Assembly: GCA_038257245.1 (NCBI GenBank)
Contig: JBBSJL010000003.1
Coordinates: 2,074-66,073 of the forward strand
Length of the DNA: 64,000 nucleotides
Source: Candidatus Saccharimonadales bacterium
Lineage (GTDB): Bacteria > Patescibacteriota > Saccharimonadia > Saccharimonadales > JACQNP01
Reading direction: 5' to 3'
This document shows positions 6,141 through 62,842 of this stretch, piece by piece. The notes below the pieces were generated by a model. It worked only from the letters and a program-made list of their open reading frames with translations. It was not told the origin of the DNA and searched no databases. Numbering within the stretch: the stretch's first letter is position 1; the number at the start of each line of letters is the position of its first letter. A program made the translations under genes and the position numbers.

Positions 6141-7492
6141 TATTTTCCTCTTCCTACTCCGATGTAGTTTAGCCCAAAACCACCAATAACTGAAGGGTCT
6201 AGAATGTTAACTGCATCAATTATAAGATTTCCCGACATTAGGTCTGCGATTTCTTTAAAATTTAGTTTCTTAAATTCTTCCCATTCCGTTGCTATTAATA
6301 TTGCATCTACTCCAGTAACTGCATCTCTAAGGGAAGACTTAACCACAACTGAGCTTCTGAGATCTCCGCCAGCTTCTATATTTGCATGCGGATCAAATGC
6401 AGTAACCTTTGCTCCAGATTTGTCTAATATATTTGCTAATTTTACTCCAGGAGATTTTCGGGAATCGCTTGTGCCCGCCTTGAAGGCAAGCCCAAGTACT
6501 GCTACTTTTTTGTTCTCGAGAGTCTCAAGTTCCCCCTGAGCTTTATTAGCAATATATCCAGGCATACTTTCGTTAATATCGGTCACAGCAATCATAATAG
6601 GCATATCAACACCGTACTCTGAGGCGCTTGCGATTAAGCCGCTTACATCCTTTGGGAAGCAGCCACCACCATAACCACGCCCAGCATTTAAAAATGCTCT
6701 ACCAATACGGTTATCTGCGCCTACTGCATCCATAACATCAACTACATCAGCTCCAGATTCGTCCGCAAGTTTAGCAATAGAATTAGCAAAAGATATTTTA
6801 AGTGCTAGGAAGGCGTTTGCAGTAACTTTAATTAGTTCTGCACTATTACGGTTTGTTCTAATATATTTCCCCGATGGTTTATTGATAGGCTCCACGTTAA
6901 TTATTTTTGCAATTTTATCTTTATTTTTTTCTAGTTGCTCATATATAGACATTACTTTAGTTATTGCTGAATCGTTATTGCTACCGACCACAACTCTGTC
7001 AAACCATAGACTATCTAGTATAGCTGTTCCTTCGCGGAGAAATTCCGGATTTGAAACATAGGCTATTTTCCTCTGCTCTTTTTTAAACAATAATTCTATA
7101 TTTTCACCAGTACCTACTGGAACCGTACTTTTCTGTACGAATACAGCAACATCGTTTGCATTTTCACTAATAGTTTTTGCAACTGAATAAATATAACTTA
7201 GGTTCGAGCTGCCATCTGGGTTATCAGGAGTACCCACACAGGAAAATATGACCTCGCTATTTTTAATTACAGCTGGCTGATCAGTTATAGAGAGGTTTTT
7301 TTGTCTCAACGCTTCTTGTAGTAACTCATCAATACCTTGCTCATAGAAAAAAGATTTACCAGATCTTAATATTTTCAATCTCTTGGGGTCGTTTTCTATT
7401 AAGTTGACCTTAAACCCAGAATTAGCAAACAGCACAGCGGATGTTAGGCCAACATATCCAGCACCAAAAATCGAAATATTACCTTTTACCAT
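6140..7492 (-). CDS. UDP-glucose/GDP-mannose dehydrogenase family (likely UDP-glucose 6-dehydrogenase)
   Basis: N-terminal Rossmann motif ISIFGAGYVGL. Catalytic GGGCFPKD motif. Length 450 aa. Confidence 0.85.
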   Translation of the reverse strand: MVKGNISIFGAGYVGLTSAVLFANSGFKVNLIENDPKRLKILRSGKSFFYEQGIDELLQEALRQKNLSITDQPAVIKNSEVIFSCVGTPDNPDGSSNLSYIYSVAKTISENANDVAVFVQKSTVPVGTGENIELLFKKEQRKIAYVSNPEFLREGTAILDSLWFDRVVVGSNNDSAITKVMSIYEQLEKNKDKIAKIINVEPINKPSGKYIRTNRNSAELIKVTANAFLALKISFANSIAKLADESGADVVDVMDAVGADNRIGRAFLNAGRGYGGGCFPKDVSGLIASASEYGVDMPIMIAVTDINESMPGYIANKAQGELETLENKKVAVLGLAFKAGTSDSRKSPGVKLANILDKSGAKVTAFDPHANIEAGGDLRSSVVVKSSLRDAVTGVDAILIATEWEEFKKLNFKEIADLMSGNLIIDAVNILDPSVIGGFGLNYIGVGRGK

Positions 7493-9375: not shown

Positions 9376-11205
9376 TCACTCAACAGTAACAGATTTGGCG
9401 AGGTTACGGGGTTTATCGACGTCTAGTTTTTTTATTACCGCGACATTGTAGGCGAATAACTGCATTACTACCGCTACCAGCAGTGGCTGAAGTTGTTCAA
9501 GTGTTTTAGGTATGTAAATAACATCATCAGATACTCTCTCAATAGATTTATTGCCCTTAGTTGCAATAGAAACTATTGGGCCACCACGAGCCTTTATCTC
9601 CTCTAAGTTTGACAGTGTCTTATCAATAAATAGATTATCTGGAGCAATTGCAAAAGTAGGGAAGTCGGAGTCTATTAATGCTAACGGACCATGCTTCATT
9701 TCACCAGCCGCATATCCCTCAGCATGTATATAGGATACTTCCTTCAGTTTTAAAGCGCCTTCTAATGCGCATGGGTACAAATTATTGCGACCAAGAAATA
9801 TAAAATCCCTATTCTTCGAATATTTAGTAGCTATCTTTTCAATCTTAGGCGCATCTTTTAGTATTTCTTTAATTTTGTTTGGCATTTGGAGCAATTCATC
9901 CAGTACTGGCTTATATAAGGGGCTATTGCCGTTAGATAGGTGTAGGGCTATTTCTGCGAGGATTGTAACCTGGGCAACAAAGGCTTTTGTACTAGCAACT
10001 GACTTTTCCGGGCCAGCATGACAATAAACACCCGCATCAGTCATCCTAGCAATTGTTGAGCCAACAGAATTGATCAGACCTAATCTAAGTACTCCGTAAT
10101 TCTCTACTTTTTTAAGTGCGGCAATAGTGTCGGCGGTTTCACCTGACTGCGAGATTGCTAGTAAGGCTGTGCTTCTAGAAAATGGTTCTTTGCGATACTT
10201 GAACTCCGATGCTAACTGGACCTCAACAGGAATGCCAGCTATTTCCTCAATTAAATACTCACCAACTAACCCGGCATAATAAGAAGTTCCACAGGCAACT
10301 ATTACGATCCTGTCGATGTATTGTAATTGGTCAGCAACAGAATCCAGACCTCCTAATTTAACAGTGTTAGTTTCGGGTTTCAGACGACCTAAAGTAGCAG
10401 ATTGTACGGTTTGTGGAGCTTCAAATATTTCTTTAAGCATATAGTGTGAGTACCCATCTAATCCTGAATCCGTTTCAGTGTTACTTATTTGCTCCGTAGA
10501 TTTTAGAATATCCTGAGACTCTTTGTAATTGTGAATTTTAACCGAATCATTTTTTACTACTGCTAACTCATAGTCATCCAAAAACATAACTTTATTTGTG
10601 TGTCCACTAATAGCACTAATGTCAGAAGCAATAATATTTGATTTTTTTCCGATACCAATTACTAATGGACTGGATAATTTTGCTACGTAAATTATTTCAG
10701 GATTATCACTATCAAGCACACCAATAGCGTAAGCACCTTGGAGTTCAAGCAGTGTTGTCTTAAGTGCAGTCAGGAAGTCCTTGCTTCGTTTCAAGTTATA
10801 ATCAATCAGATTCGGTATTACTTCTGTATCTGTATCAGAGTAAAATTTGTAATCTTTACTGATAAGGAAATCTTTTAACTCCTGATAATTTTCGATGATT
10901 CCGTTGTGAACAACATGGATTTTCTGATTATTACTACTATGAGGGTGAGCATTGATCTGCGAGGGTGGACCGTGCGTGGCCCACCGGGTATGACCAATAG
11001 CGATTTTGGCATTAAGATCCCCATTTAAGGATATCTCGTTTTGAAGTGACTCAACACGACCAGCAGTTTTTATAGTTTTTGTACCAGCTTTGGATATTGA
11101 GGTGATTCCAGCCGAGTCGTAACCCCGATATTCTAGTGACTTTAAGCCGTTAATTACGGGAGTAATAGCAGATTTGTTTCCGATAAAACCGACAATTCCG
11201 CACAT
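9376..11205 (-). CDS. glmS: Glutamine--fructose-6-phosphate aminotransferase
   Basis: MCGIVG N-terminal nucleophile, two SIS domains, and a C-terminal ...KSVTVE. Length 609 aa. Confidence 0.95.
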   Translation of the reverse strand: MCGIVGFIGNKSAITPVINGLKSLEYRGYDSAGITSISKAGTKTIKTAGRVESLQNEISLNGDLNAKIAIGHTRWATHGPPSQINAHPHSSNNQKIHVVHNGIIENYQELKDFLISKDYKFYSDTDTEVIPNLIDYNLKRSKDFLTALKTTLLELQGAYAIGVLDSDNPEIIYVAKLSSPLVIGIGKKSNIIASDISAISGHTNKVMFLDDYELAVVKNDSVKIHNYKESQDILKSTEQISNTETDSGLDGYSHYMLKEIFEAPQTVQSATLGRLKPETNTVKLGGLDSVADQLQYIDRIVIVACGTSYYAGLVGEYLIEEIAGIPVEVQLASEFKYRKEPFSRSTALLAISQSGETADTIAALKKVENYGVLRLGLINSVGSTIARMTDAGVYCHAGPEKSVASTKAFVAQVTILAEIALHLSNGNSPLYKPVLDELLQMPNKIKEILKDAPKIEKIATKYSKNRDFIFLGRNNLYPCALEGALKLKEVSYIHAEGYAAGEMKHGPLALIDSDFPTFAIAPDNLFIDKTLSNLEEIKARGGPIVSIATKGNKSIERVSDDVIYIPKTLEQLQPLLVAVVMQLFAYNVAVIKKLDVDKPRNLAKSVTVE

Positions 11206-16491: not shown

Positions 16492-17973
16492 ATGGAAAAA
16501 TCGACAAACCTAGAAGTTATTGATCGGCCTGAACATCAGGGTATTATTGAAGCTTCGGAAATTGTCGATAGGCTAGGCATAGAACAACTTGCCTGCGAGC
16601 TAATCGAAAACAGAGATAAAATCGAAAATGTGGCTGTTCCTCGTCAAGAGCGTGAAGATAATGCACGTACGGCACTTATGGAGGCGCTAACTGCGTCAGG
16701 GCACCTCTCTAGAGTTGAATTAACGGGTAGCTTAGAGGAAATTAATGCTCAAGTACTGTCGCGATTGCTAAATGGTTGGAGTGACAACCTAAACCCTCAC
16801 GAAAAACAAAGGCGTTTTGTTGAGCTTTGTAATGAACTAACAATCCAAGAGGTGCATAGATGCATTGAAGCAGGCATGTTACCAGAATCTGTAGAACTAA
16901 CGGAGATTTCTGACTACCCAATGGCATTATCTGACAAGCAAGCGGAAAGATTGGGTTATCGACCAGAAAATAAAAAAGGCATGGTACGTACAACAGGACT
17001 CGTAAAGAACAGTGGCGGTACATACACAAGAGTTATCGAACAGGTTAGCAGAAGCAGTGCTGATTCCAGTAGTACATTTGAATTTATGCAATCAGCCGAC
17101 CTAGATGGTAGCTCCGCTCAGCTACTTGATGTAGAAGCACTGGGCAGGCCGCTACTAACCAGCACAGTAGATTACGCAGATGGAGTTATTGATATTCAAA
17201 GAAGGCTGGATAAACATTCGGGTGGTCATATATATGGTGAAAAACCAGGCCCAAACCAAATTCCATATGAGGATTTACGCGAAGAGTCTTTTAGAAGAGA
17301 GCGACGTATTGAATTTTATACAACTAACCTAGCAGATTTTGAAACAAGACTAGACCAAGCATACATAGGCGGGCTTATATCCAAAAAAGAGAAGGACAAT
17401 CAGTTCAAACAAGAAGTTAGGGCAATATTAGAAGCTATTTGTACGTTAACCCCAGAATATGCAGAGGATTGTTTTGGTGGGAAAGCTGCTGCAACTTTTT
17501 TTGAGGCATCAAATCTAGCTGCAGCCGGGCAACTAGAAATGGCCAGGCAACTTATTCATGATAACCGCGACCTGCAGAAACCAATAGTTTTTTGTGGGAT
17601 GTCTATTTCACCAGAAAAAGCCAAGGAATTAGGGCTAAATATAAGTGAAACAGGTGATTTGATTTCCGAAGGGAAAGAAAAGATGAAGTTTAAACCTGGG
17701 GTTTGTAGAATTAAGTCTTGCGCCAAGAAAACAGACGTGGGGCCTTGTAGCATATGTCGCAATTGCCAGTCTAGGTTTGATAAAGGCGACGACCCAACTT
17801 TAGATATTGTTAGTTCTTCAAAGACGACTCAAGAAGATCCAGGCACCAAAACGTTAGATGCAATATTTCACTATAGTGATGTCGATAAAGAACCACACGA
17901 CATTATCGAACAAGAACGAGTGGATGCCAATACTTCAAAAGAAGAAACATATAAAACACCAGTGGCTGTATAA
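16492..17973 (+). CDS. Hypothetical soluble 493-aa protein with a C-terminal Cys4 zinc-ribbon-like motif
   Basis: Long clean ORF with no TM segment. CRIKSC-x9-CSICRNC near the C-terminus. I recognise no family. Confidence 0.75.
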   Translation: MEKSTNLEVIDRPEHQGIIEASEIVDRLGIEQLACELIENRDKIENVAVPRQEREDNARTALMEALTASGHLSRVELTGSLEEINAQVLSRLLNGWSDNLNPHEKQRRFVELCNELTIQEVHRCIEAGMLPESVELTEISDYPMALSDKQAERLGYRPENKKGMVRTTGLVKNSGGTYTRVIEQVSRSSADSSSTFEFMQSADLDGSSAQLLDVEALGRPLLTSTVDYADGVIDIQRRLDKHSGGHIYGEKPGPNQIPYEDLREESFRRERRIEFYTTNLADFETRLDQAYIGGLISKKEKDNQFKQEVRAILEAICTLTPEYAEDCFGGKAAATFFEASNLAAAGQLEMARQLIHDNRDLQKPIVFCGMSISPEKAKELGLNISETGDLISEGKEKMKFKPGVCRIKSCAKKTDVGPCSICRNCQSRFDKGDDPTLDIVSSSKTTQEDPGTKTLDAIFHYSDVDKEPHDIIEQERVDANTSKEETYKTPVAV

Positions 17974-50650: not shown

Positions 50651-50726
50651 TGGTGGGGGTGGCAGGAATTGAACCTGCGACCAATCGGTTATGAGCCGAG
50701 TGCTCTAACCCCTGAGCTACACCCCC
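50651..50726 (-). tRNA. tRNA-Met (anticodon CAU), elongator type; tRNA-Ile2(CAU) not excluded
   Basis: Reverse complement GGGGGTG TA GCTC AGGGGTTA GAGC A CTCGG CTCATAA CCGAT TGGTC GCAGG TTCAATT CCTGC CACCCCC A CCA. It has a G1:C72 pair and Y11:R24. Confidence 0.85.
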
Positions 50727-50799: not shown

Positions 50800-51243
50800 A
50801 TGCTTGAAAAAATAAACAAATCTATCAAAGATCCACGCGTGCAACAGTTCAAGGACGTTCGCGTTATCAGTTTAGTGGTCTTTGGGGTGATTGTTTTGTT
50901 GGTTTCTTGGAGTAGTGTAAACGTAATCCAAACCAACTATGATTTACAAAAGCAGATCGCAAAACTGGAACAACAAAACGAAGTAAAGAGCCTAAAGAAT
51001 GAGAACCAAAAACTTCGCAACCAGTTTTACGACACGGACCAATTTCTAGAATTACAGGTTAGGCGAAACTTCGGCAAGGCTGCACCGGGCGAAACTTTAG
51101 TGTTAGTACCTAAAGATGTGGCTTTATCAAAAACTGTAGCAAAACCGGAGGAGCCAAAACAAAGTGAGACTCAAACACCAAACAAACCAACTTACCAAAG
51201 AAATTTTGAAACATGGGTGGATTTCTTCTTGCACAGAACCTAG
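50800..51243 (+). CDS. FtsB/DivIC-like septum formation initiator
   Basis: N-terminal TM helix followed by a leucine-zipper-like coiled coil (LQKQIAKLEQQNEVKSLKNENQKLRNQ). TGCTATAAT lies 9 nt before the ATG. Confidence 0.6.
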   Translation: MLEKINKSIKDPRVQQFKDVRVISLVVFGVIVLLVSWSSVNVIQTNYDLQKQIAKLEQQNEVKSLKNENQKLRNQFYDTDQFLELQVRRNFGKAAPGETLVLVPKDVALSKTVAKPEEPKQSETQTPNKPTYQRNFETWVDFFLHRT

Positions 51244-52751: not shown

Positions 52752-52826
52752 CGCGGGGTAGAGCAGCGGCAGCTCGTCTGGCTCATAACCAGAAGGTCGC
52801 AGGTTCGAGTCCTGCCCCCGCTACCA
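52752..52826 (+). tRNA. Initiator tRNA-fMet (anticodon CAU)
   Basis: CGCGGGG TA GAGC AGCGGCA GCTC G TCTGG CTCATAA CCAGA AGGTC GCAGG TTCGAGT CCTGC CCCCGCT A CCA. It has a C1xU72 mismatch and A11:U24, and its acceptor and D-stem are nearly identical to E. coli tRNA-fMet. Confidence 0.9.
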
Positions 52827-52865
52827 AGCATAAGCATTATGACCTCTAGAAATAGAGGTCTTTTC
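52821..52865 (+). repeat. Junction repeat copy A (tail only; overlaps the last 6 nt of tRNA-fMet)
   Basis: CTACCAAGCATAAGCATTATGACCTCTAGAAATAGAGGTCTTTTC is identical to the tails of copies B and D. The hairpin spans 52841-52860, followed by a T-run. Confidence 0.9.
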
Positions 52866-52888
52866 ATTCGTTTTGTTATTATTAAGTT

Positions 52889-53491
52889 ATGAAGGTCAAC
52901 TATAGTCCAGAGCAAGTTGCTGCTCAGTTTCGTAATTGTGGCAGAAGGTGGTGGATTGCGGGAGGATGGGCAATAGACTACTACCTAGGGAAGGTCACTC
53001 GTGAACACGAGGATGTCGATGTAGCCATTTTAAAAAGTGACGAGAAGGCATTTCGTAGCTACATGCAAGACTGGGAAATATGGCCTGGATTAGGCGATAA
53101 CAAATTAGAAGATAAACCGATAAGGATCGATGAGGCACTTTCGGAAGAACGAGGTGTGCTATGGTGCCGTCCATCCCCTGCAGACGAATGGGCCTTTGAA
53201 CTGTTACTCAATCCAACCAAGGGTAGCGAGTGGGTGTTTAAGCGAGACGAGAGAATACGAAAACCGTTAGATAGACTCGGGTCTGTTACTGACGACGGTA
53301 TTCCATATCTAAATCCAGAAATTGTACTTTTATTTAAAGCCAAAAATAATCGGGAAAAAGATCAGCAAGATTTTGAAACTGTAATACCAATGCTTGGCGA
53401 AGACGCAAGAAGGTGGCTACGTCACTCAATACAGATTGTTCATCCTGATCACCCCTGGCTAACTGCGCTGTGTTCAACTCCTACTGCCTAG
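52889..53491 (+). CDS. ANT(2'')-like nucleotidyltransferase (aminoglycoside 2''-adenylyltransferase family fold)
   Basis: WWIAGGWAIDYYLGKVTREHEDVDVAI parallels the LWIGGGWAID..LGRVTRKHDDIDL motif of ANT(2'')-Ia as I recall it. The last ~7 codons run into repeat copy B. Confidence 0.65.
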   Translation: MKVNYSPEQVAAQFRNCGRRWWIAGGWAIDYYLGKVTREHEDVDVAILKSDEKAFRSYMQDWEIWPGLGDNKLEDKPIRIDEALSEERGVLWCRPSPADEWAFELLLNPTKGSEWVFKRDERIRKPLDRLGSVTDDGIPYLNPEIVLLFKAKNNREKDQQDFETVIPMLGEDARRWLRHSIQIVHPDHPWLTALCSTPTA

Positions 53492-53630
53492 ACCCTACAG
53501 GGGATTCCTCCCTAACCTCATTCACTATCTCCCACATACCTATCAGTTCTCGTTTAATAAGGTTCCATTTCGTCAAAGGCATGCCTACCAAGCATAAGCA
53601 TTATGACCTCTAGAAATAGAGGTCTTTTTT
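53471..53630 (+). repeat. Junction repeat copy B (full: head, body, tail)
   Basis: The last 111 nt differ from copy D at 1 position by manual alignment. The hairpin spans 53605-53624, followed by a T-run. Confidence 0.9.
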
Positions 53631-53653
53631 GTTGGCTTTGGTATGATGTCTTT

Positions 53654-54205
53654 ATGAAAAATGCAATTCTATTACATGGTTCTGGCGGAAGTAGCGTAGA
53701 CTACTTTTGGTTTGAAGATACTAAGAGGCACCTTGAATCATTAGGTTACGAAGTATGGTGGCCACTATTGCCGAATACTGATAGTCCAAAACTAATTGAG
53801 ACCCGTGACTATATAGAACAAAATATGCCCAGTATTGACGAACAAACAGTTATTATCGCTCATTCATCTGCATGCCCTTTAATTCTCCATATGATGCAAT
53901 ATTTTAAGGTTAGAGTACGGCAAGTCATTCTAGTATCAGGATATTACCAGTCTATATCTGGAGAATCGAATAACATGTTACCCGAAAGTTTCGATTGGGA
54001 CGAGATTAAGCAACATGCGGAAGAGATAATACTAATAAACTCCGATAATGACCCCTGGGGTTGTAATGACAAACAAGCACGACCTGCTGCGGAAAAACTA
54101 GGTGCGAAGTTTATATTCGCTAAAGAGCAGGGTCATATGGGCTCAGGGACATATAATCAACCTTATAGAAAGTTTGAGCTGCTTAATTCACTACTACCAA
54201 GTTAG
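53654..54205 (+). CDS. YdeN/RBBP9-type serine hydrolase
   Basis: MKNAILLHGSGGS start and an AHSSAC nucleophile region. TGGTATGAT lies 6 nt before the ATG at 53654. The track start at 53603 sits inside the repeat hairpin. Confidence 0.7.
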   Translation: MKNAILLHGSGGSSVDYFWFEDTKRHLESLGYEVWWPLLPNTDSPKLIETRDYIEQNMPSIDEQTVIIAHSSACPLILHMMQYFKVRVRQVILVSGYYQSISGESNNMLPESFDWDEIKQHAEEIILINSDNDPWGCNDKQARPAAEKLGAKFIFAKEQGHMGSGTYNQPYRKFELLNSLLPS

Positions 54206-54223
54206 TTTGTTATAATCCAAAAC

Positions 54224-55174
54224 ATGGATATCAAAGATACTAACGTTCATAATAGCGGCATGCTTGATGTGGGTGATGGACATAAGCTTTATTGGGAAGA
54301 TTGGGGCAATCCTAAATCAACACCAATTATGCACTTTCATGGTGGCCCAGGCGGCGGCTTTAGCGATAGTCATAAGTTAATGTTTAACGCTCAAAAACAC
54401 AGGGTAATTTTTTATGACCAAAGAGGTTCGGGTAAGAGCACGCCCTATGCGTCAACTAAAGATAATACAACGCAAAAACTAGTAGAAGATGCAGAGAAGC
54501 TACGTAAACACCTTAAGATAGATAAGATGCACCTTGTTGGTGGTTCTTGGGGCTCAACAATGACATTAGCGTATGCAATGGCTTACCCAGATAATGTTAA
54601 AGCCATGGTTATGTGGGGCATATATCTAACTAGGCAGTTTGAAAATGACTTAATTGCAGCTGGATATGCAAAATATAACTATCCTGAAGCATGGGAACGG
54701 TTTATATCGCTAGTACCTGAAGAGCATCGAAAAGACGGTGACTCTATAACAAGATACTATTCAGGCAAGATAAACTCTAAAAATACTAAAGAGGCAATTC
54801 AGTATGCTGATGAGTGGACACTATGGGAGTGCACATTACTGTCCGTAAACTATGATAAAGCTAAACTAGAACTCGATGTTATAAAAGGCGATGATAGTAA
54901 CCTAGCTATTGCAAGATTAGAAACACATTATTTTATTAACGATTGTTTTATGCCAGGAAACTATTTGTTAGATAACATAGGTAAAATAAAACACATTCCT
55001 AGTTATGTTGTTCAGGGTAGATTTGATAACTGCACACCTCCAATTACTGCGTATGAACTAAGTAAGTCATATGGCAAAAACATGACTTTGCAGTTTGTAA
55101 ATGGTGGCCATAGACGTAGTGACCCAGAAGTACTTGCTGCCTTAAGAGCAGCTGTAAACACGACCTTAGTCTAG
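54224..55174 (+). CDS. pip: Prolyl aminopeptidase (proline iminopeptidase, S33)
   Basis: HGGPGGG, YDQRGSGKS and GGSWGSTM motifs. TGTTATAAT lies 7 nt before the ATG. Confidence 0.85.
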   Translation: MDIKDTNVHNSGMLDVGDGHKLYWEDWGNPKSTPIMHFHGGPGGGFSDSHKLMFNAQKHRVIFYDQRGSGKSTPYASTKDNTTQKLVEDAEKLRKHLKIDKMHLVGGSWGSTMTLAYAMAYPDNVKAMVMWGIYLTRQFENDLIAAGYAKYNYPEAWERFISLVPEEHRKDGDSITRYYSGKINSKNTKEAIQYADEWTLWECTLLSVNYDKAKLELDVIKGDDSNLAIARLETHYFINDCFMPGNYLLDNIGKIKHIPSYVVQGRFDNCTPPITAYELSKSYGKNMTLQFVNGGHRRSDPEVLAALRAAVNTTLV

Positions 55175-55180
55175 TGCTTT

Positions 55181-55205
55181 AAGCTCTAGAAATGGAGGTC
55201 TTTTT
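55181..55205 (+). repeat. Junction repeat copy C (hairpin-only variant)
   Basis: AAGCTCTAGAAATGGAGGTCTTTTT, followed by the same TTTGTTATGATTAAGTTATGAA leader as after copy A. Confidence 0.75.
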
Positions 55206-55229
55206 ATTTGTGTTTGTTATGATTAAGTT

Positions 55230-55955
55230 ATGAAATCGAATAGTCATCCGGTTACACAGCAGTATCAGCCTACAAATACAACCTGTAGTCCAACAGCACT
55301 TTCGACACTACTTGGGCACTACGGGAATAAGATAAGTCCACTGGACGTTGAAGCGAAGGTTCCACAGTCTATAAATGATAAGGGTGAAAAGATAGGCACT
55401 ATAAATCAACAATTAGCTACATGGTGTTTAACTAGAGGATACAACGTGACACTCTATACTTTCGATTGTCAGATAATAGATCAATCATGGGGTAAGCTCG
55501 AGACAAATAAACTGATTGAACGTATGAAATTGCGAAAGAATGGGTGGGTCGTTCCGGGCATGGGCGAAGAGTGGACAAAACGATACACACAAGCTTATAT
55601 TGATTTTATTATTGCTGGCGGTAAATTACATATACAGCCTGCAGTAACAACCGTACTACTTTACGATCTATTGAAGACAGGCCCTTTCTTGCCATGTGTG
55701 AGCTACAGCACTTTATATGGTGAAGCTCGTTCGAGGAATATTGGGGAAATTGAAGTTGTTACTGATGATGTAAATGGTAGAGCAACTAACCACTCGATTG
55801 TCGTATATGGCAATGATGAGTCGGGTAATTTCGTGATTGCGGACTCTTGGAAGAAACCAGGCCTTCACACTATTGAGCCCGAGAGATTACTTGCGGCAAT
55901 AAGCACGGCACAGATTGAGTGTGATAACCTGCTATTCCAAATACAACCTAAGTAG
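55230..55955 (+). CDS. Peptidase C39-like (papain-fold) cysteine peptidase domain protein
   Basis: QQYQPTNTTCSPTALSTLLGHYG fits the Q...N.C.P.A....L..YG motif, and NHSIVVYG is a candidate His. TGTTATGAT lies 6 nt before the ATG. Confidence 0.55.
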   Translation: MKSNSHPVTQQYQPTNTTCSPTALSTLLGHYGNKISPLDVEAKVPQSINDKGEKIGTINQQLATWCLTRGYNVTLYTFDCQIIDQSWGKLETNKLIERMKLRKNGWVVPGMGEEWTKRYTQAYIDFIIAGGKLHIQPAVTTVLLYDLLKTGPFLPCVSYSTLYGEARSRNIGEIEVVTDDVNGRATNHSIVVYGNDESGNFVIADSWKKPGLHTIEPERLLAAISTAQIECDNLLFQIQPK

Positions 55956-55962
55956 AAGTATT

Positions 55963-56120
55963 GGTTCAAGTCCTACTGCTTAGACTGAAACAGGGCTTCC
56001 TTCCTAATATCATTCACTATCTCCCACATACCTATCAGTTCTCTTTTAATAAGGTTCCATTTCGTCAAAGGCATGCCTACCAAGCATAAGCATTATGACC
56101 TCTAGAAATAGAGGTCTTTT
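55963..56120 (+). repeat. Junction repeat copy D (full)
   Basis: Head GGTTCAAGTCCTACTGCTTAGAC, a body, and a tail identical to copy A. The hairpin spans 56097-56116. Confidence 0.9.
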
Positions 56121-56230
56121 CATTTTATAACTATTTGCCAGGGAGCTGCTACCTAGTTAACCGTTATCCTTTTAACAACATTGAGAGTATAATTGAAGGT
56201 ACACAAAGTGGAATAATCTAGGAGCTAAAT

Positions 56231-56638
56231 ATGACAGATATTAAACAAACCGTAACAGAGACCGAAGATAGTGGTAATAATGAAGTCGGAGCAGCTGTCC
56301 GGCAGAAAACTAAACAAATCCATACTGAATCAGCGGCAGACAGTAAAACAACTGCACAAAACATCGTTTGGTACATACTGGGTGTTTTGGAAGTCGTTTT
56401 GGCAATTAGATTTGTTCTCAAACTCCTAGGAGCAAACTCTGCGAACGCATTTGTTGATTTAACTTATTCTATTAGTGGAATTATTACTGCGCCCTTTGAT
56501 AGCATATTCGGCGTAACAAGCACCACTACAGGTGATACTAATTCTGTGTTTGAACCTTCAATAATTGTTGCCGGGTTAGTCTATATGTTGATAGCGTGGG
56601 GAGTCGTCAAGCTGATCACTATTAACCAAAAGCAGTAA
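56231..56638 (+). CDS. YggT-like two-helix membrane protein
   Basis: TAGGAG SD. The IRFVLKLLGAN....ITAPFDSIFG pattern resembles the YggT repeat. Confidence 0.45.
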   Translation: MTDIKQTVTETEDSGNNEVGAAVRQKTKQIHTESAADSKTTAQNIVWYILGVLEVVLAIRFVLKLLGANSANAFVDLTYSISGIITAPFDSIFGVTSTTTGDTNSVFEPSIIVAGLVYMLIAWGVVKLITINQKQ

Positions 56639-56660
56639 CTATAATAAGGTAAGGCGTCGA

Positions 56661-56888
56661 ATGAAATATTACAAAAAACGCATTGAAGATGTACTAAAAA
56701 GACCACGAAGTCTTATTTCAAAAGTTAACTTCCGTCGCTATCTTACAAACGTTAACGAGCCGGCAGAAAATATATCAGAATTACGGCTACCAGAATCAAA
56801 AATTCGAAAACACGACAAGATAGATTCTGCACGGCAAAGGGTTGGGATTCGTAAACTTGCTAAAAAACTAAGACTTAGAAGTAAGTAG
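56661..56888 (+). CDS. Small highly basic protein, unknown function
   Basis: 75 aa, K/R-rich, with a weak SD (TAAGG). Confidence 0.4.
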   Translation: MKYYKKRIEDVLKRPRSLISKVNFRRYLTNVNEPAENISELRLPESKIRKHDKIDSARQRVGIRKLAKKLRLRSK

Positions 56889-56941
56889 ATTAAAGCTAGA
56901 TGTTGATTATTATTTCATATATAGCTACCCGCATTAAATAG

Positions 56942-58651
56942 ATGAATTTTGTTAAAACAGCATTGTTGAATATACGACTAGTTCTGGTCCTACTTGGAGT
57001 AGTATTTTTAGGTTCTATAGCTTACAGCCAACTAAAAGGAAGCCAAGATTTTGCTGATATTATAAATGGGCATGACTGGACCCACTTTGCTGGAGCAACA
57101 CAAACCCAAAGTGGTATCCAAATATCTCCACTGAATAAAGAAATCATTCACCAAGACGGATCAAAAGCACAGCTAAATCCACCCTTAAACGTCCGTGGTC
57201 CTCATTTGGCAGTCTCTGGAAACTTTGAAGTTAAGGCTAACATGGATGGCATAGAAGACGGGGCTTCGTTACAATTTTACAGCCAACCGCCAGTTATATA
57301 TGACGAATGGCGACAAGAGCACCCAAGCATTAGAATTGATATATCTGCCAACAGCGTAGAAGCGCGTATATGGGACGGTAACTCATCAACACCAATGGAC
57401 ATTCGTAGTTTTAATGTGAACTTAAATGGGCCAACGAAGCTAGATCTTAAGCACGAAGACGGACAGATAGCTCTGGCAGTAAACAGCCACGAGCTTGGGT
57501 CTATGCCAGATCATAATATATTTGCTGGTGGGACGGTTTGGTTTGGGTTAGACGGAAACGATAAAGGGGATGGCTGGATACTACGTGACCTTAGGGCACA
57601 TCCTCTTGGTAAAGATAGCTTGGATGTTATAGCCGTAACTTCTCTAACTGTTGACCACAATGACGCAAACTTACTACGTAATCTAATTGATAAACAGTCT
57701 CGCAAAATACAAATTGGCGTGGCAGTGTCGGTAAACCCTCTATACACCGATGAAGCATACAAGAATATTGCCATGAGCCAGTTTAATTTAGTAACCACAG
57801 AGAGTAGTTTAAAGGCCCAATTTATTCATCCAGCACCTGATAAATATAACTTTACCGAAGCGGATAATATTATTGCTATGGCGGAGGCTAACGGCCAGGC
57901 AGTTCACGGGCATACTTTGATCTTTGCTAAGTCTAATCCATCGTGGATGACAGATACACCCGAAGACAAGTTGGCTGGCGTCATGACAGACCATACAACT
58001 AATGTTGTCAAACATTTTAAAGGTCGTATTGGTTCGTGGGATGTTGTTAATGAACCTATGTCCGAAAAGGACGAAGATTATACAAACGGGAATCTAGGCT
58101 TACGACAGCATTTTTGGTTCAAAGCTATGGGCGAACAATACATCGACAAAGCATTTAAAGCGGCACGAGCGGCTGACCCAACTGCAAAACTATATTTGAA
58201 TGATTACGGTATCGAGCATGATGGCATGCGATGGCAAGCATTCTACACACTCGTGCAACGTCTTCAAGCTCGTGGTGCCCCAATTGACGGTGTTGGGTTT
58301 GAATCTCATGTCTACCAGACCACGGACAAAATTGATCTGACAATATTAAGAGCGCATATAAAAGCAATTGCCGATTTGGGGCTAAGTGTCCGAATATCGG
58401 AAATAGATGTTTTGGGAGATGAACCACAATTTCAGAGCCAGCAGTACAGCGATGTATTGGCTGTTTGTTTAAGTGAACCTAGCTGCTCATCATATACCAC
58501 CTGGGGTGTATCGGACTTATATGGTTCTACAACTATTTCTGAACGATATCCACTATTGCTAGGTGATAGTTTACTGTGGGACAAGGATATGCAACCCAAA
58601 TCAGCTTTTTTTGAACTTCAGAAAGTGCTTAAGAACAACCAGGTGCAGTAA
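56942..58651 (+). CDS. Membrane-anchored glycoside hydrolase family 10 (endo-beta-1,4-xylanase-like) with an N-terminal beta-sandwich-like domain
   Basis: Signal-anchor helix, a ~200-aa unassigned domain, then a GH10 domain with GHTLIF, WDVVNEP (acid/base Glu) and ISEIDV (nucleophile Glu). Confidence 0.8.
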   Translation: MNFVKTALLNIRLVLVLLGVVFLGSIAYSQLKGSQDFADIINGHDWTHFAGATQTQSGIQISPLNKEIIHQDGSKAQLNPPLNVRGPHLAVSGNFEVKANMDGIEDGASLQFYSQPPVIYDEWRQEHPSIRIDISANSVEARIWDGNSSTPMDIRSFNVNLNGPTKLDLKHEDGQIALAVNSHELGSMPDHNIFAGGTVWFGLDGNDKGDGWILRDLRAHPLGKDSLDVIAVTSLTVDHNDANLLRNLIDKQSRKIQIGVAVSVNPLYTDEAYKNIAMSQFNLVTTESSLKAQFIHPAPDKYNFTEADNIIAMAEANGQAVHGHTLIFAKSNPSWMTDTPEDKLAGVMTDHTTNVVKHFKGRIGSWDVVNEPMSEKDEDYTNGNLGLRQHFWFKAMGEQYIDKAFKAARAADPTAKLYLNDYGIEHDGMRWQAFYTLVQRLQARGAPIDGVGFESHVYQTTDKIDLTILRAHIKAIADLGLSVRISEIDVLGDEPQFQSQQYSDVLAVCLSEPSCSSYTTWGVSDLYGSTTISERYPLLLGDSLLWDKDMQPKSAFFELQKVLKNNQVQ

Positions 58652-58660
58652 GAACAAACT

Positions 58661-58818
58661 GGTTCAACTACTACCGCCTAGGCTGCAACAGGGCTTCTCT
58701 CCTAACTTCATTCACTATCTCCCACATACCTATCAGTTCTCGTTTAATCTGGTTCCAATTCGTCAAAGGCATGCCTACCAAGCATAAGCACTAAGACCTC
58801 TGTAAAAAGAGGTCTTTT
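58661..58818 (+). repeat. Junction repeat copy E (full, diverged)
   Basis: About 8 mismatches to copy B over the last 111 nt. Hairpin variant GACCTCT gtaaaa AGAGGTC followed by TTTT. Confidence 0.85.
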
Positions 58819-58850
58819 ATATTTTGTTAGTAAAGACTACAAAATAAGTG

Positions 58851-58879
58851 TTGACATGCTATTTATGATTTGGTAAATT
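58851..58879 (+). promoter_or_regulatory. Sigma-70-type promoter of an apparently non-coding unit
   Basis: TTGACA (58851-58856), a 17-nt spacer, then TGG-TAAATT (58871-58879). Confidence 0.45.
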
Positions 58880-58885
58880 ATTTCT

Positions 58886-59028
58886 CGGAAGACCGAGTGA
58901 AACAGCACAAGTTCGTTAATATGTATCCGTTCAAGTTAGTAAAGTTCGAAGTTTGTTAGTTCGTAGGATACATCTGTGGGTGCTAGTCTTCCCCAGTACA
59001 AAGAGGCACAGAACGTGCCTCTTTTCAT
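58886..59028 (+). ncRNA. Candidate ~140-nt small RNA or cis-regulatory leader
   Basis: Bounded by the promoter above and the terminator AAGAGGCAC agaac GTGCCTCTT TTCATTT (59001-59030). An internal 7-bp stem TGTATCC/GGATACA (58922-58972) encloses AGTT(C/A/T)G repeats. No plausible ORF. Confidence 0.3.
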
Positions 59029-59185
59029 TTGGTTCTATTGCTCACAGGTGCTGCATCAAACACTAGTTTTCATCTGTTCGAATCTTCAAACAAAACGTTC
59101 CAATTCGACAAACCTAGATACTTATAAATACAGTCTACTTAATAGTTGGAGTAATTTGTCCTCATTTTTGGTATATTTGATTGAT

Positions 59186-59752
59186 ATGCAACATTTAGTT
59201 ATAGATTGTACAAAACCGAAGGATAAAGATTTCAATTCCCGACTATACAGGTACCTAGATATTATTGCTGACTACGACGTAGTTAATATTGAAGAGATAG
59301 GCGAGAGCACATTAGGTAAATATAAGACAATAATAATTACAGGTGTTCCAGTAACCTACCCGCTAGATTCCATATATGAAACAGCCAAAAGGTTAGAATG
59401 TATTAAAAGTGTGAATATCCCTGTGCTAGGAATATGTCTTGGTCATCAGGTAATAGGAGTACTATTTGGCTCTAAAATTTATGAGCACGGTGAAGCTGAG
59501 CATGGGGATAGAAAGGTCACCATAGTTAACGATGACAAAATATTCAAAGACATGTCGCATGAGTTTCATGCCCAAACACTTCATACGGCATCAGTAAGTT
59601 TGCCCCATTCGTTCAAACACTTAGCTAAATCCTATAGTTGTCATAATGAATCGATGAAACATAAAGAAAAGGATATTTATGGCTTTCAATTTCACCCAGA
59701 GTTTAAGGAATCATCCAGAGCAGTAATAAGAAACTTCATACTATTGAATTAG
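59186..59752 (+). CDS. Class I glutamine amidotransferase domain protein
   Basis: PVLGICLGHQ (Cys nucleophile) and FQFHPE (His/Glu). TGGTATATT lies 8 nt before the ATG at 59186. The track start at 58976 (GTG) reads through the terminator. Confidence 0.7.
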   Translation: MQHLVIDCTKPKDKDFNSRLYRYLDIIADYDVVNIEEIGESTLGKYKTIIITGVPVTYPLDSIYETAKRLECIKSVNIPVLGICLGHQVIGVLFGSKIYEHGEAEHGDRKVTIVNDDKIFKDMSHEFHAQTLHTASVSLPHSFKHLAKSYSCHNESMKHKEKDIYGFQFHPEFKESSRAVIRNFILLN

Positions 59753-59820
59753 AAACAGCTTTCCACCTTTCCACCTTCCCAACTCCTAAAGCAGTAAGAT
59801 CCAATTAGAATGTACTTGGG

Positions 59821-59885
59821 CTACCAAGCATATTCACTATGGATTATAATAAGGAAGGTGTTTTAGCCTAGCTTTGTTATGATTA
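59821..59885 (+). repeat. Junction repeat copy F (scrambled/degenerate)
   Basis: CTACCAAGCATA (tail start) is fused to TTCACTAT (a body fragment), and TTTGTTATGATTA (the leader) is at 59873-59885. CAACTCCTA, a head-like fragment, lies at 59780-59788. Confidence 0.55.
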
Positions 59886-59893
59886 TGTAGTAT

Positions 59894-60316
59894 ATGAAAA
59901 CCACAAAAAGAAACCAAAATCTGTGTAGTAAGTCAGGTTTTACAATTGTAGAAGTGATGATTGTCCTCGCTGTGGCAGGTCTAATTGTATTAATTCTTTT
60001 CTTTGCCATTCCTGCTTTACAGCGGATGACACGAAATACACGTCGTGATAATGATGTTCAATTAATAGTCGCAGCGATTAATGAATGCGTACTGAATAAT
60101 AACGGCCAAATTGACGGCTGTCAGGCTTTCGGCAATATCCCTATAGATGCGTCTAATTTAAGTATTTTCTCTGGTGCTCATTATGGTGTTGATGCGTCGG
60201 GTAATTCTGTCGCACCAACAGAAGAAGAGCCAAACTGGCTTTTTAATTTAAGGTGTAATAGTGATGGAACTTGGTTTTTGTCTGATAACCCACAAAGAGC
60301 TTTCGTCGTTACTTAA
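59894..60316 (+). CDS. Type IV pilin-like protein (prepilin N-terminal cleavage/methylation motif)
   Basis: KSG|FTIVEVMIVLAVAGLIVLILF has the G-F-T-x-x-E motif and a hydrophobic helix. Cys residues are present in the C-terminal domain. Confidence 0.7.
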   Translation: MKTTKRNQNLCSKSGFTIVEVMIVLAVAGLIVLILFFAIPALQRMTRNTRRDNDVQLIVAAINECVLNNNGQIDGCQAFGNIPIDASNLSIFSGAHYGVDASGNSVAPTEEEPNWLFNLRCNSDGTWFLSDNPQRAFVVT

Positions 60317-60420
60317 GAAAGAGAAGTTGGGTCATCAATACGAAACAAATGTATAGATGGATAATTGATACGATAGTTATGGTTTAGTACAAAATAGCAA
60401 ACTAAAACATTACGATTCAT

Positions 60421-60484
60421 GGTTAAATTCCTACTACCTAAACCCCAACAGGCTTTCTTCTTAGTATCATTCACTATCTCCCAC
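60421..60484 (+). repeat. Junction repeat copy G (head plus first part of the body only)
   Basis: GGTTAAATTCCTACTACCTAAACCCCAACAGGCTTTCTTCTTAGTATCATTCACTATCTCCCAC. Homology stops at 60484, and no tail or hairpin follows. Confidence 0.75.
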
Positions 60485-62752: not shown

Positions 62753-62786
62753 GCTTATATTACCTCTAGAAATGGAGGTCTTTTTT
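62753..62786 (+). repeat. Junction repeat copy H (tail/hairpin variant)
   Basis: GCTTATATTACCTCTAGAAATGGAGGTCTTTTTT carries the same TGGAGGTC variant arm as copy C. Confidence 0.75.
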
Positions 62787-62842
62787 ATTTGCCACTTGCT
62801 CCTTTAAGGCTTATGCTTAATCTAACTAATACAAGGAATATT

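Follow-up and report, generated by a model that had tools for sequence, protein, structure and literature searches.

A repeated minus-strand reading frame downstream of a tRNA-Met gene as the probable detached 3′ end of a large serine recombinase gene

The archaeal SSV-type 'suicidal' integrases (SSV1, pTN3, pT26-2) carry their att site inside their own gene, so that insertion into a tRNA gene partitions the integrase gene and leaves its parts flanking the element (PMC8371274). These enzymes are tyrosine recombinases (PF16795); the split separates a short N-terminal from a catalytic C-terminal portion and so abolishes activity, and according to a 2021 review they are found only in archaea, in viruses and plasmids (PMC8371274). 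An attP inside a coding gene is also known from mycobacteriophage BPs, where it lies within the repressor gene; the prophage form of this protein, gp33, is 33 residues shorter and loses an ssrA-like degradation tag (PMC4557955). In tRNA-island accretion and tycheposons, each new insertion at a tRNA gene displaces the earlier elements outward; the tycheposon elements were found by integrase screening, and their repeats are partial tRNAs (10.1101/2020.12.28.424599). Our literature searches on serine recombinases or integrases in connection with suicidal integrases, att sites within genes or Patescibacteria found nothing relevant.

The locus described here lies in a 64-kb stretch of DNA (the window) and contains a repeat with a 33-codon minus-strand ORF. 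Most likely, this ORF represents the final ~35 codons of a large serine recombinase (LSR) gene, separated from the rest when its mobile element inserted at a tRNA gene's CCA end and cut the recombinase gene in two; we assign this reading a probability of about 0.65. The body of the repeat would probably correspond to the displaced 3′ coding segment (about 31–36 codons) of the LSR gene plus half of an att site. As in the SSV-type elements, the att site would lie inside the recombinase ORF and integration would split the gene: in two related contigs (L030 and L031), the LSR ORF passes through the core into the tRNA, and in-frame segments are found at the distal core. The likeness is one of working and not of membership: SSV-type integrases belong to Phage_integr_3 (PF16795) and have archaeal hosts, whereas the LSRs have serine-recombinase domains and occur in Saccharibacteria-like bacteria. 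Moreover, only the last ~31–34 residues would be detached here, with 11–14 antisense-tRNA codons in their place, leaving the catalytic and DNA-binding domains intact. The integration-dependent immunity of BPs and its relatives shares with our locus an attP in a coding gene, a C-terminal tail of almost the same size and a protein whose state reports integration (PMC4557955), but there the repressor is split and the integrase is a tyrosine enzyme, whereas here the recombinase itself would be split.

Tycheposons likewise have cargo blocks with repeated att or partial-tRNA sequences between them (10.1101/2020.12.28.424599). The present cassettes differ from them in being 0.8–2.7 kb long and in lacking a recombinase, and their repeats in having only 6–7 nt in common with the tRNA and in each carrying a conserved coding segment. 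With integron arrays they share an ordered series of small, co-oriented cargo units of varying content, each ending in a conserved ~100-nt element. This likeness is superficial: there is no IntI (0 tyrosine recombinases among the ORFs scanned) and no attI, the array starts at a tRNA gene, the sole inverted repeat has four invariant pairs and is no attC-type folded palindrome (R″-L″...L′-R′), and the repeat is protein-coding on the opposite strand. The locus thus lacks the defining features both of integrons and of tRNA islands or tycheposons.

A cassette array anchored at a tRNA-Met gene

Between 52.7 and 60.5 kb, the window contains three full copies (B, D and E) of a ~157-nt repeat and several tail-only pieces downstream of a tRNA-Met(CAU) gene (Table 1). 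The repeat map and the Pfam scan agree with the original prediction that these copies are separated by unrelated cargo. Copies B and D, reported to differ at 1 of 111 positions, do so in our recount from TCATTCAC to the T-run, and copy E has 8–9 differences over the same 111 nt, where about 8 had been given. The minus-strand ORFs at 53481–53582, 55973–56074 and 58671–58772 translate exactly as first written, and copy G keeps the reported peptide stretch in a frameshifted and, as we found, also truncated form. A palindrome (GGCATGCC) noted at the boundary between body and tail is present in the window lineage but lineage-specific, relatives having GCTCAGCT at that position.

Table 1. Features of the tRNA-Met locus in window coordinates.
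Feature	Position	Strand	Description
tRNA-Met (CAU; C1/A72 mismatch, initiator-like)	52752..52826	+	ARAGORN and Rfam, 64 bits
Copy A	52821..52868	+	core CTACCAA, then terminator hairpin (52841-52860); 100% identical to copy D tail
Array of ~5 recombinase-less cassettes	52828..60484	+	all cargo on +; Pfam scan, repeat map
Cassette 1 cargo			ANT(2″)-like
Cassette 2 cargo			Ser hydrolase, a/b hydrolase, C39-like peptidase
Cassette 3 cargo			YGGT-like, 75-aa ORF, GH10 xylanase
Cassette 4 cargo			GATase (glutamine amidotransferase)
Cassette 5 cargo			pilin-like
Repeat copy B, full	53472-53628		repeat map
Copy B tail segment	53481..53591	-	TTG GTA GGC ATG ... TAG; 36 codons from TTG (LVGMPLTKWNLIKRELIGMWEIVNEVREESPVGSRQ)
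Copy B core CTACCAA	53585-53591		
Repeat copy D, full	55964-56120		repeat map
T-arm-like relic (GGTTCAAGTCCTACTGC)	55964..55985	+	directly 3′ of tail stop codon; tRNA 3′-half comparison
T-arm-like relic, other copies	53472-53490 and 58662-58680		
Copy D tail segment	55973..56083	-	36 codons from TTG, 33 from ATG
Copy D core CTACCAA	56077-56083		
Terminator hairpin	56097..56116	+	GACCTCTAGAAATAGAGGTC, then T-run; terminator scan; compensatory hairpin variants in relatives
Same terminator hairpin, other copies	53605-53624 and 58793-58816	+	
Repeat copy E, full	58662-58818		repeat map
Copy E tail segment	58671..58781	-	core 58775-58781
Second-type tail segment (...TCCAATTAGAATGTACTTGGGCTACCAA)	59760..59827	-	core 59821-59827; ends cassette 4
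Copy G	60420..60484	-	truncated and frameshifted tail segment (..GWEIVNDTKKKA..), without core or hairpin

The tRNA-Met gene is the integration target, and its last bases, CTACCA, are the shared core. What had been termed the tail of the repeat consists of these 6 nt, an A and the intrinsic terminator downstream of the tRNA, and a terminator scan found the same plus-strand terminator after every repeat copy. Each cassette ends with the repeat body, then CTACCAA, then the terminator hairpin, which belongs to the proximal arm of the next cassette. (In the following, 'tail segment' or 'tail ORF' refers to the minus-strand coding stretch of the body.) The core adjoins tRNA-Met in the window and in L016, L007, L027, L030 and L031; in L029 it adjoins tRNA-Glu, and there the TCACCA end gives the peptide start MVS. 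Short att sites with minimal identity, as in LSR elements, were found throughout: in the window, L027, L029 and L030, the tRNA and the distal junction share only 6–7 nt, namely CTACCA(A) at tRNA-Met or TCACCA at tRNA-Glu. This sequence, the sole one common to the tRNA and the distal cassette end, is complementary to the opening codons of the ORF, which supports the view that the repeat contains a recombination site.

At its other end, the body carries a T-arm-like relic, whose antisense reads AxG(L/V)EP, like the antisense of a tRNA, and which tracks the T-stem of the host tRNA (CCTCC in relatives, CCTGC/CCTAC in the window). Judged by sequence, the body looks like a tRNA 3′ end into which the tail-coding segment has been inserted. 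The tail segment that ends cassette 4 is of a second type; its antisense ORF LVAQVHSNWILLL* (LVAQVHSNW...) has a stop after 13 codons, whereas intact homologues (LVAQVHSNWNALRAELARWKSY...) are found three times in L006, and a similar one constitutes the second tail of L030. With second-type tails occurring alongside the first type, the arrays thus mix tail subfamilies. Hairpin-only copies (CTCTAGAAATGGAGGTCTTTTT) were seen at 55184–55209 and 62758–62788, with neither core nor body, and may be internal terminators or relics of more cassette boundaries.

When metagenomes were scanned for an 18-mer of the repeat core, six contigs (L006, L007, L013, L016, L018 and L019) proved to carry true copies, with 70–78% identity and up to 3–4 copies each, and L026 is a further contig with the repeat. 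Among homologues of the Dus protein, the best one to bear a name is assigned to Candidatus Saccharibacteria. The layout of L016 and L007 is that of the window (tRNA-Met, hairpin, cargo, repeat), and cassette content varies between relatives; at 72–85% identity, which is too low, DNA comparison of relatives does not place the cassette breakpoints. The more distant syntenic relative L024 has the tRNA and no array, that is, an empty site. Exact-pattern scans gave one chance match in genome contigs (a Spirochaetales MAG) and, in two scans of viral contigs, only a chance match, and a protein-pattern scan of viral contigs (IMG/VR) returned neither relatives nor a full-length recombinase with a tail. 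Upstream of the array in the window, a second tRNA-Met(CAU) gene (50651–50726, minus strand) and a DivIC/FtsB-like gene (50800–51243) follow a Dus gene; the order Dus, tRNA-Met(-), DivIC-like, tRNA-Met(+) is kept in L007 and L024, and L016 is the same from tRNA-Met(-) onward. The sequence after the tail stop resembles a tRNA T-loop and acceptor (GGTTCAACTCCTCCCGCC versus GGTTCGAGTCCTCCCCCCGC), as it also does in L026 and L031.

The minus-strand reading frame

The minus frame stays open for three codons upstream of the ATG from which the 33 codons had been counted; there it reaches a TTG, which is complementary to the CAA of CTACCAA. In relatives, this frame encodes (L/M)VAELASKWNQVKxELIAMWEIVNEVRKESPVRV*, and their DNA varies at third positions (GTG/GTA/GTT, AAT/AAC, ATA/ATT). 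Entropies at the three codon positions were 10.8, 10.7 and 18.3 for 14 copies (p about 0.008) and 17.5, 11.8 and 26.1 for 16 diverged intact copies including distant ones (p = 5e-4; p = 4e-5 for codons 9–29 only). The pN/pS ratio is 0.23–0.36 in the minus frame versus about 1 in the two shifted frames. A profile (HMM) search of 1.84e9 representative proteins (50% representatives) recovered 92 clusters, nearly all of 31–76 aa, which share the single motif MVGxxxT[KN]WNQIKxELIxMWxIVxxVRxExxVxV. Beyond the window, homologous copies that keep this frame are present in 92 protein clusters and at least 12 metagenomic contigs, far more than chance would give. The codon-position pattern, the pN/pS values and the protein family support the coding option of the original prediction and indicate that the minus frame is translated somewhere. 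AlphaFold2 models the segment as a single helix (residues 6–34, pLDDT 87), so that it would fold as a simple appendage consisting of one amphipathic helix. No Pfam family was matched by the peptide or by the longer junction ORFs described below.

The plus-strand frame, which had been noted as open too, is so in the window copies, whereas five related copies on other contigs interrupt it with internal stops. This frame mirrors the minus frame as its exact antisense and varies most at codon position 1; we rejected it. We also discarded the idea that the ORF is a fragment of a widespread long protein, for instance an integrase N-terminus, three protein searches having returned 0 long homologues.

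Compared with the family, whose members end in ..ESPVxV*, all three full window copies (B, D and E) lack one nucleotide near the 3′ end. An A was lost from GAAAGCC in copies D and E (giving GAAGCC), and the deletion replaced the ancestral ending ..ESPVSV* by ..EALFQSKQ* in copy D; in copy B, a T was lost in CCTGTTAGG, five codons before the ancestral stop. Stops or frameshifts in further copies, which the original prediction had named as evidence against a peptide, do occur: in an alignment of 18 related copies, two carry stops and two insertions, and copy G is truncated and frameshifted. These copies are a minority and look like products of decay, not like a sign of non-coding function. Some cargo ORFs extend into the repeat and terminate at a CTAG or CTAA in which the minus strand has a TAG (53489–53491 in the window, and in relatives). 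Where relatives show the consensus ending, this TAG terminates the tail itself; in copy B it lies just inside the frameshift-extended ORF (stop at 53481–53483); convergent cargo and tail frames thus overlap by a few bases.

The start of the frame coincides with the core. On the opposite strand, ..CTACCAN, a copy of the tRNA 3′ end, gives the initial NTG GTA G.. of the frame, and across the tRNA-Met and tRNA-Glu loci codons 1–3 are the complement of (C/T)(T/C)ACCA(N). Because the complement of CCAN is N′TG, a bacterial start codon at the core arises automatically, unless N′ is C. Accordingly, this codon varies among the tails (TTG, ATG or CTG), and the intact LSR gene of L030 has GTG there. The ATG of the 33-codon ORF codes for a residue internal to a subfamily motif (MPLTKWN). 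We found no ribosome-binding site or promoter upstream of it, the plus-strand terminator hairpin lying directly upstream instead, and a promoter scan of the minus strand upstream of the ORF gave 0 matches.

Recombinase genes that read through the core

Most of the longer ORFs that extend upstream of the core resemble one another only in the translated terminator hairpin (KKTSFY..., RKNRLF...). Two exceptions, P0171 and P0136, share an upstream stretch, ..FWN..LFPxGxxYxFETGxGT.., which we also found near the C-terminus of a 513-aa LSR in L030 (PF00239 and PF07508; 16000–17541). The gene of this LSR reads through the hairpin and the core into a tRNA-Met gene on the opposite strand (17498–17574) and ends in ...DQNPN-VVA-ATGIEPVTLGL*. 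The other end of the 7-kb L030 element carries a tail ORF (LVGMTLTRWNTIKRELITLWEIF..) that is 59% identical to copy D over 29 aligned codons. In frame ahead of this tail ORF lies the decayed remnant of a recombinase C-terminus from an older neighbouring element, and the fused frame is P0171 (L030, 10001–10396), a tandem-element junction in which the LSR C-terminal fragment (FLFPHGIIYDFETGFGT...) is followed by the hairpin, LVG and the tail. A second LSR, in L031, has 515 aa (PF00239), is 40% identical to the first, also overlaps tRNA-Met and ends in ...NNSD-LVA-ATGLEPVTFGL*; the tail ORF of this contig (MVGVVGTNWNQIKRELITMWQIVNQVRKEAPVTV) lies 4.3 kb from the LSR gene.

P0136 is encoded by L036, a contig of 504 bp, whose recombinase C-terminal region stays open all the way to where the natural sequence begins. 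Its frame continues through the hairpin and two adjacent cores (LVS, from TCACCAA, and LVG, from CTACCAA) into the tail. The two cores stand side by side in one frame at nt ~230–260, TTGGTGAGC being of the tRNA-Glu type (TCACCAA) and TTGGTAGGA of the tRNA-Met type (CTACCAA), and hint at a dual or switching target specificity. The ends of this contig carry a random-amplification primer (GTTTCCCAGTCACGATA).

Both LSR genes cross the core in the same NTG-GTA-G frame as the tails, so that conservative recombination between an element's two cores is bound to join the LSR to the tail. It follows from the core-crossing frame that attP would lie inside the recombinase gene and that the complete protein would exist only in the excised state. 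A full-length LSR carrying the tail was found neither in 5.8e9 proteins nor among the 50% representatives; an empty syntenic tRNA site was found in L024 and a contiguous attP-type junction in L036, and no circular form was found. An LSR gene lies inside the element in L030 and L031, but not in the 64-kb window, which has LSR-less derivatives only: tblastn with both LSRs gave 0 matches at E<=1, and a Pfam scan of 30 ORFs detected 0 recombinases. Upstream of the core, the frame of the window tails reads K-D-L-Y-F-*-R-S-*, which is homologous to KKDLSESEKSH of P0136 but interrupted by stops. Similarly, the antisense frame of copy A gives K-D-L..., as in the recombinase C-termini of P0136 and L030, but again with stops; copy A is an attL-type junction whose hairpin segment is a presumed relic of a recombinase gene 3′ end. 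From their sequences, the window tails look like LSR relics. The 1-nt deletions, the truncated copy G, the stopped second-type tail and the stops and insertions in relatives lead us to read the array as a series of recombinase-less insertions that appear to be slowly decaying.

An ORF of this size could also be a free-standing small gene for a protein of 34–36 aa that starts at the NTG or ATG of the core and encodes, for example, a recombinase cofactor, a directionality factor or a cassette-borne regulator. Gene callers repeatedly predict ORFs of 31–45 aa starting exactly there, often with ATG; the protein-level constraint persists in cassettes that have no recombinase; and in the window copies stops close the region upstream of the core, so that no longer protein is possible there. 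Yet the start codon is an automatic by-product of the CCA end and changes among the tails, a hairpin occupies the place of a conserved ribosome-binding site or promoter, the frame coincides with that of two LSR genes that are only 40% identical and of two junction ORFs, and all three full window copies are frameshifted at the C-terminus. We therefore consider such a gene unlikely, and the original version of it, a free-standing 33-codon gene beginning at the ATG, is probably wrong, given that this ATG is internal to MPLTKWN, that ribosome-binding site and promoter are lacking, that NTG is automatic and that the frame continues from the LSR in relatives. The free-standing peptide and the split recombinase are not mutually exclusive. 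A more conventional explanation, that the repeats are attR scars of tRNA islands with tyrosine integrases and that the body is an arm-type binding region in which the ORF has no significance, is considerably less probable still. Like tRNA-linked islands and tycheposons (10.1101/2020.12.28.424599), the array does lie downstream of a tRNA gene and contains repeats of the tRNA end, and the left end of the body bears the T-arm-like relic.

L031 moreover contains partial tRNA-Met copies of the classical kind, both of 48 nt and spanning the anticodon loop to CCA: a perfect one at 9830–9877, 122 nt outside the tail core, and one of 81% identity further out, at 6649–6696. These copies suggest classical att scars, left by a different kind of element that also uses this tRNA; the perfect copy may be the scar of another element or mark an alternative boundary under which the LSR would be unchanged on integration. 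In a classical tRNA-targeting island, a displaced tRNA 3′ fragment (about 15–50 nt) is repeated at the distal end. The window junctions repeat the 6–7 nt of the tRNA plus downstream sequence, and the window array contains no longer tRNA fragment, only the diverged T-arm-like relic ~100 nt upstream. No tyrosine integrase was found in any locus examined, and a DNA-binding site cannot explain the third-position pattern and a protein family of 92 clusters. That the body is a structured RNA (a 3′-UTR element or a small RNA ending at the terminator) or a folded DNA site like an integron attC is the least credible reading and very improbable. Its position between the cargo stop and a plus-strand intrinsic terminator means that it is probably transcribed with the cargo, and the architecture is cassette-like; but the RNAalifold consensus has an energy of -1.07 kcal/mol with four invariant pairs and 0 compensatory changes, Rfam gave 0 matches at E<=1 besides the tRNA, and variation concentrates at the wobble positions of the minus frame and not in paired columns. 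The comparison of codon-position pattern with covariation that the original prediction had proposed thus gave a wobble signal in the minus frame and no covarying pair, and the RNA option was not supported. An integron attC, a dif-like Xer site in the tail and a D-arm-like TAGCTCAGC motif were dropped, none being conserved across relatives.

A proposed integration cycle and its implications

According to the split-recombinase reading, the complete element would carry an LSR gene that is antisense to the tRNA and spans attP. The last stretch of this gene would comprise the antisense of the terminator hairpin, the core (NTG GTA G.., read as L/M-V-G/A), the WNQIKxELIxMWxIV helix and the stop. The element would insert when its CTACCA recombines with the 3′ terminus of a tRNA-Met or tRNA-Glu gene, after which the LSR ORF would end in 11–14 antisense-tRNA codons and the helix segment would stay at the far end within attR. 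The window array would then be a stack of insertions that have lost their LSR or of LSR-less elements moved in trans, each unit consisting of a hairpin relic, cargo, a T-arm-like relic and a tail segment with its core. Tandem arrays would require a serine recombinase to integrate again and again at an attL-like site, which is not textbook behaviour. Intact tails may persist because excision via a downstream core would rebuild a full-length LSR from the captured tail. The wobble signature in copies without a recombinase could accordingly reflect either a recent origin from recombinase-bearing elements or, as we propose, selection through tail capture at excision.

More tentatively, and with the odds somewhat against it, the system may be a cassette-capturing equivalent, in bacteria and with a serine recombinase, of the suicidal integrases of archaea. 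The ~31-residue helix, present only on the enzyme of the excised circle, would act as an integration-state switch (of directionality or stability, or as a degron), and excision via any downstream CTACCA would take neighbouring cassettes along and borrow their tail. If so, tail borrowing would explain purifying selection on the segment in recombinase-less, tRNA-anchored cassettes of Saccharibacteria-like genomes.

Should this interpretation hold, the principle of an att site in the recombinase's own gene would reach beyond archaea and tyrosine recombinases to a second domain of life and another enzyme superfamily, and variable gene arrays beside tRNA genes in the reduced genomes of the ultra-small Saccharibacteria-like bacteria would have a concrete mechanism. 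Large serine integrases are widely used genome-editing enzymes, and a natural one whose C-terminus changes with the integration state would bear on the engineering of directionality. For annotation, 'hypothetical' ORFs of ~34 aa that start with MVG or MVA beside copies of a tRNA end would be split-gene fragments marking element boundaries. Directly upstream of both LSR genes we observed a conserved 50-aa ORF (..EARK(I/L)LG...(D/N)(D/E)(E/Q)(L/I)EE..; L030, 15801–15953; L031, 12731–12883), which is a candidate directionality factor or regulator.
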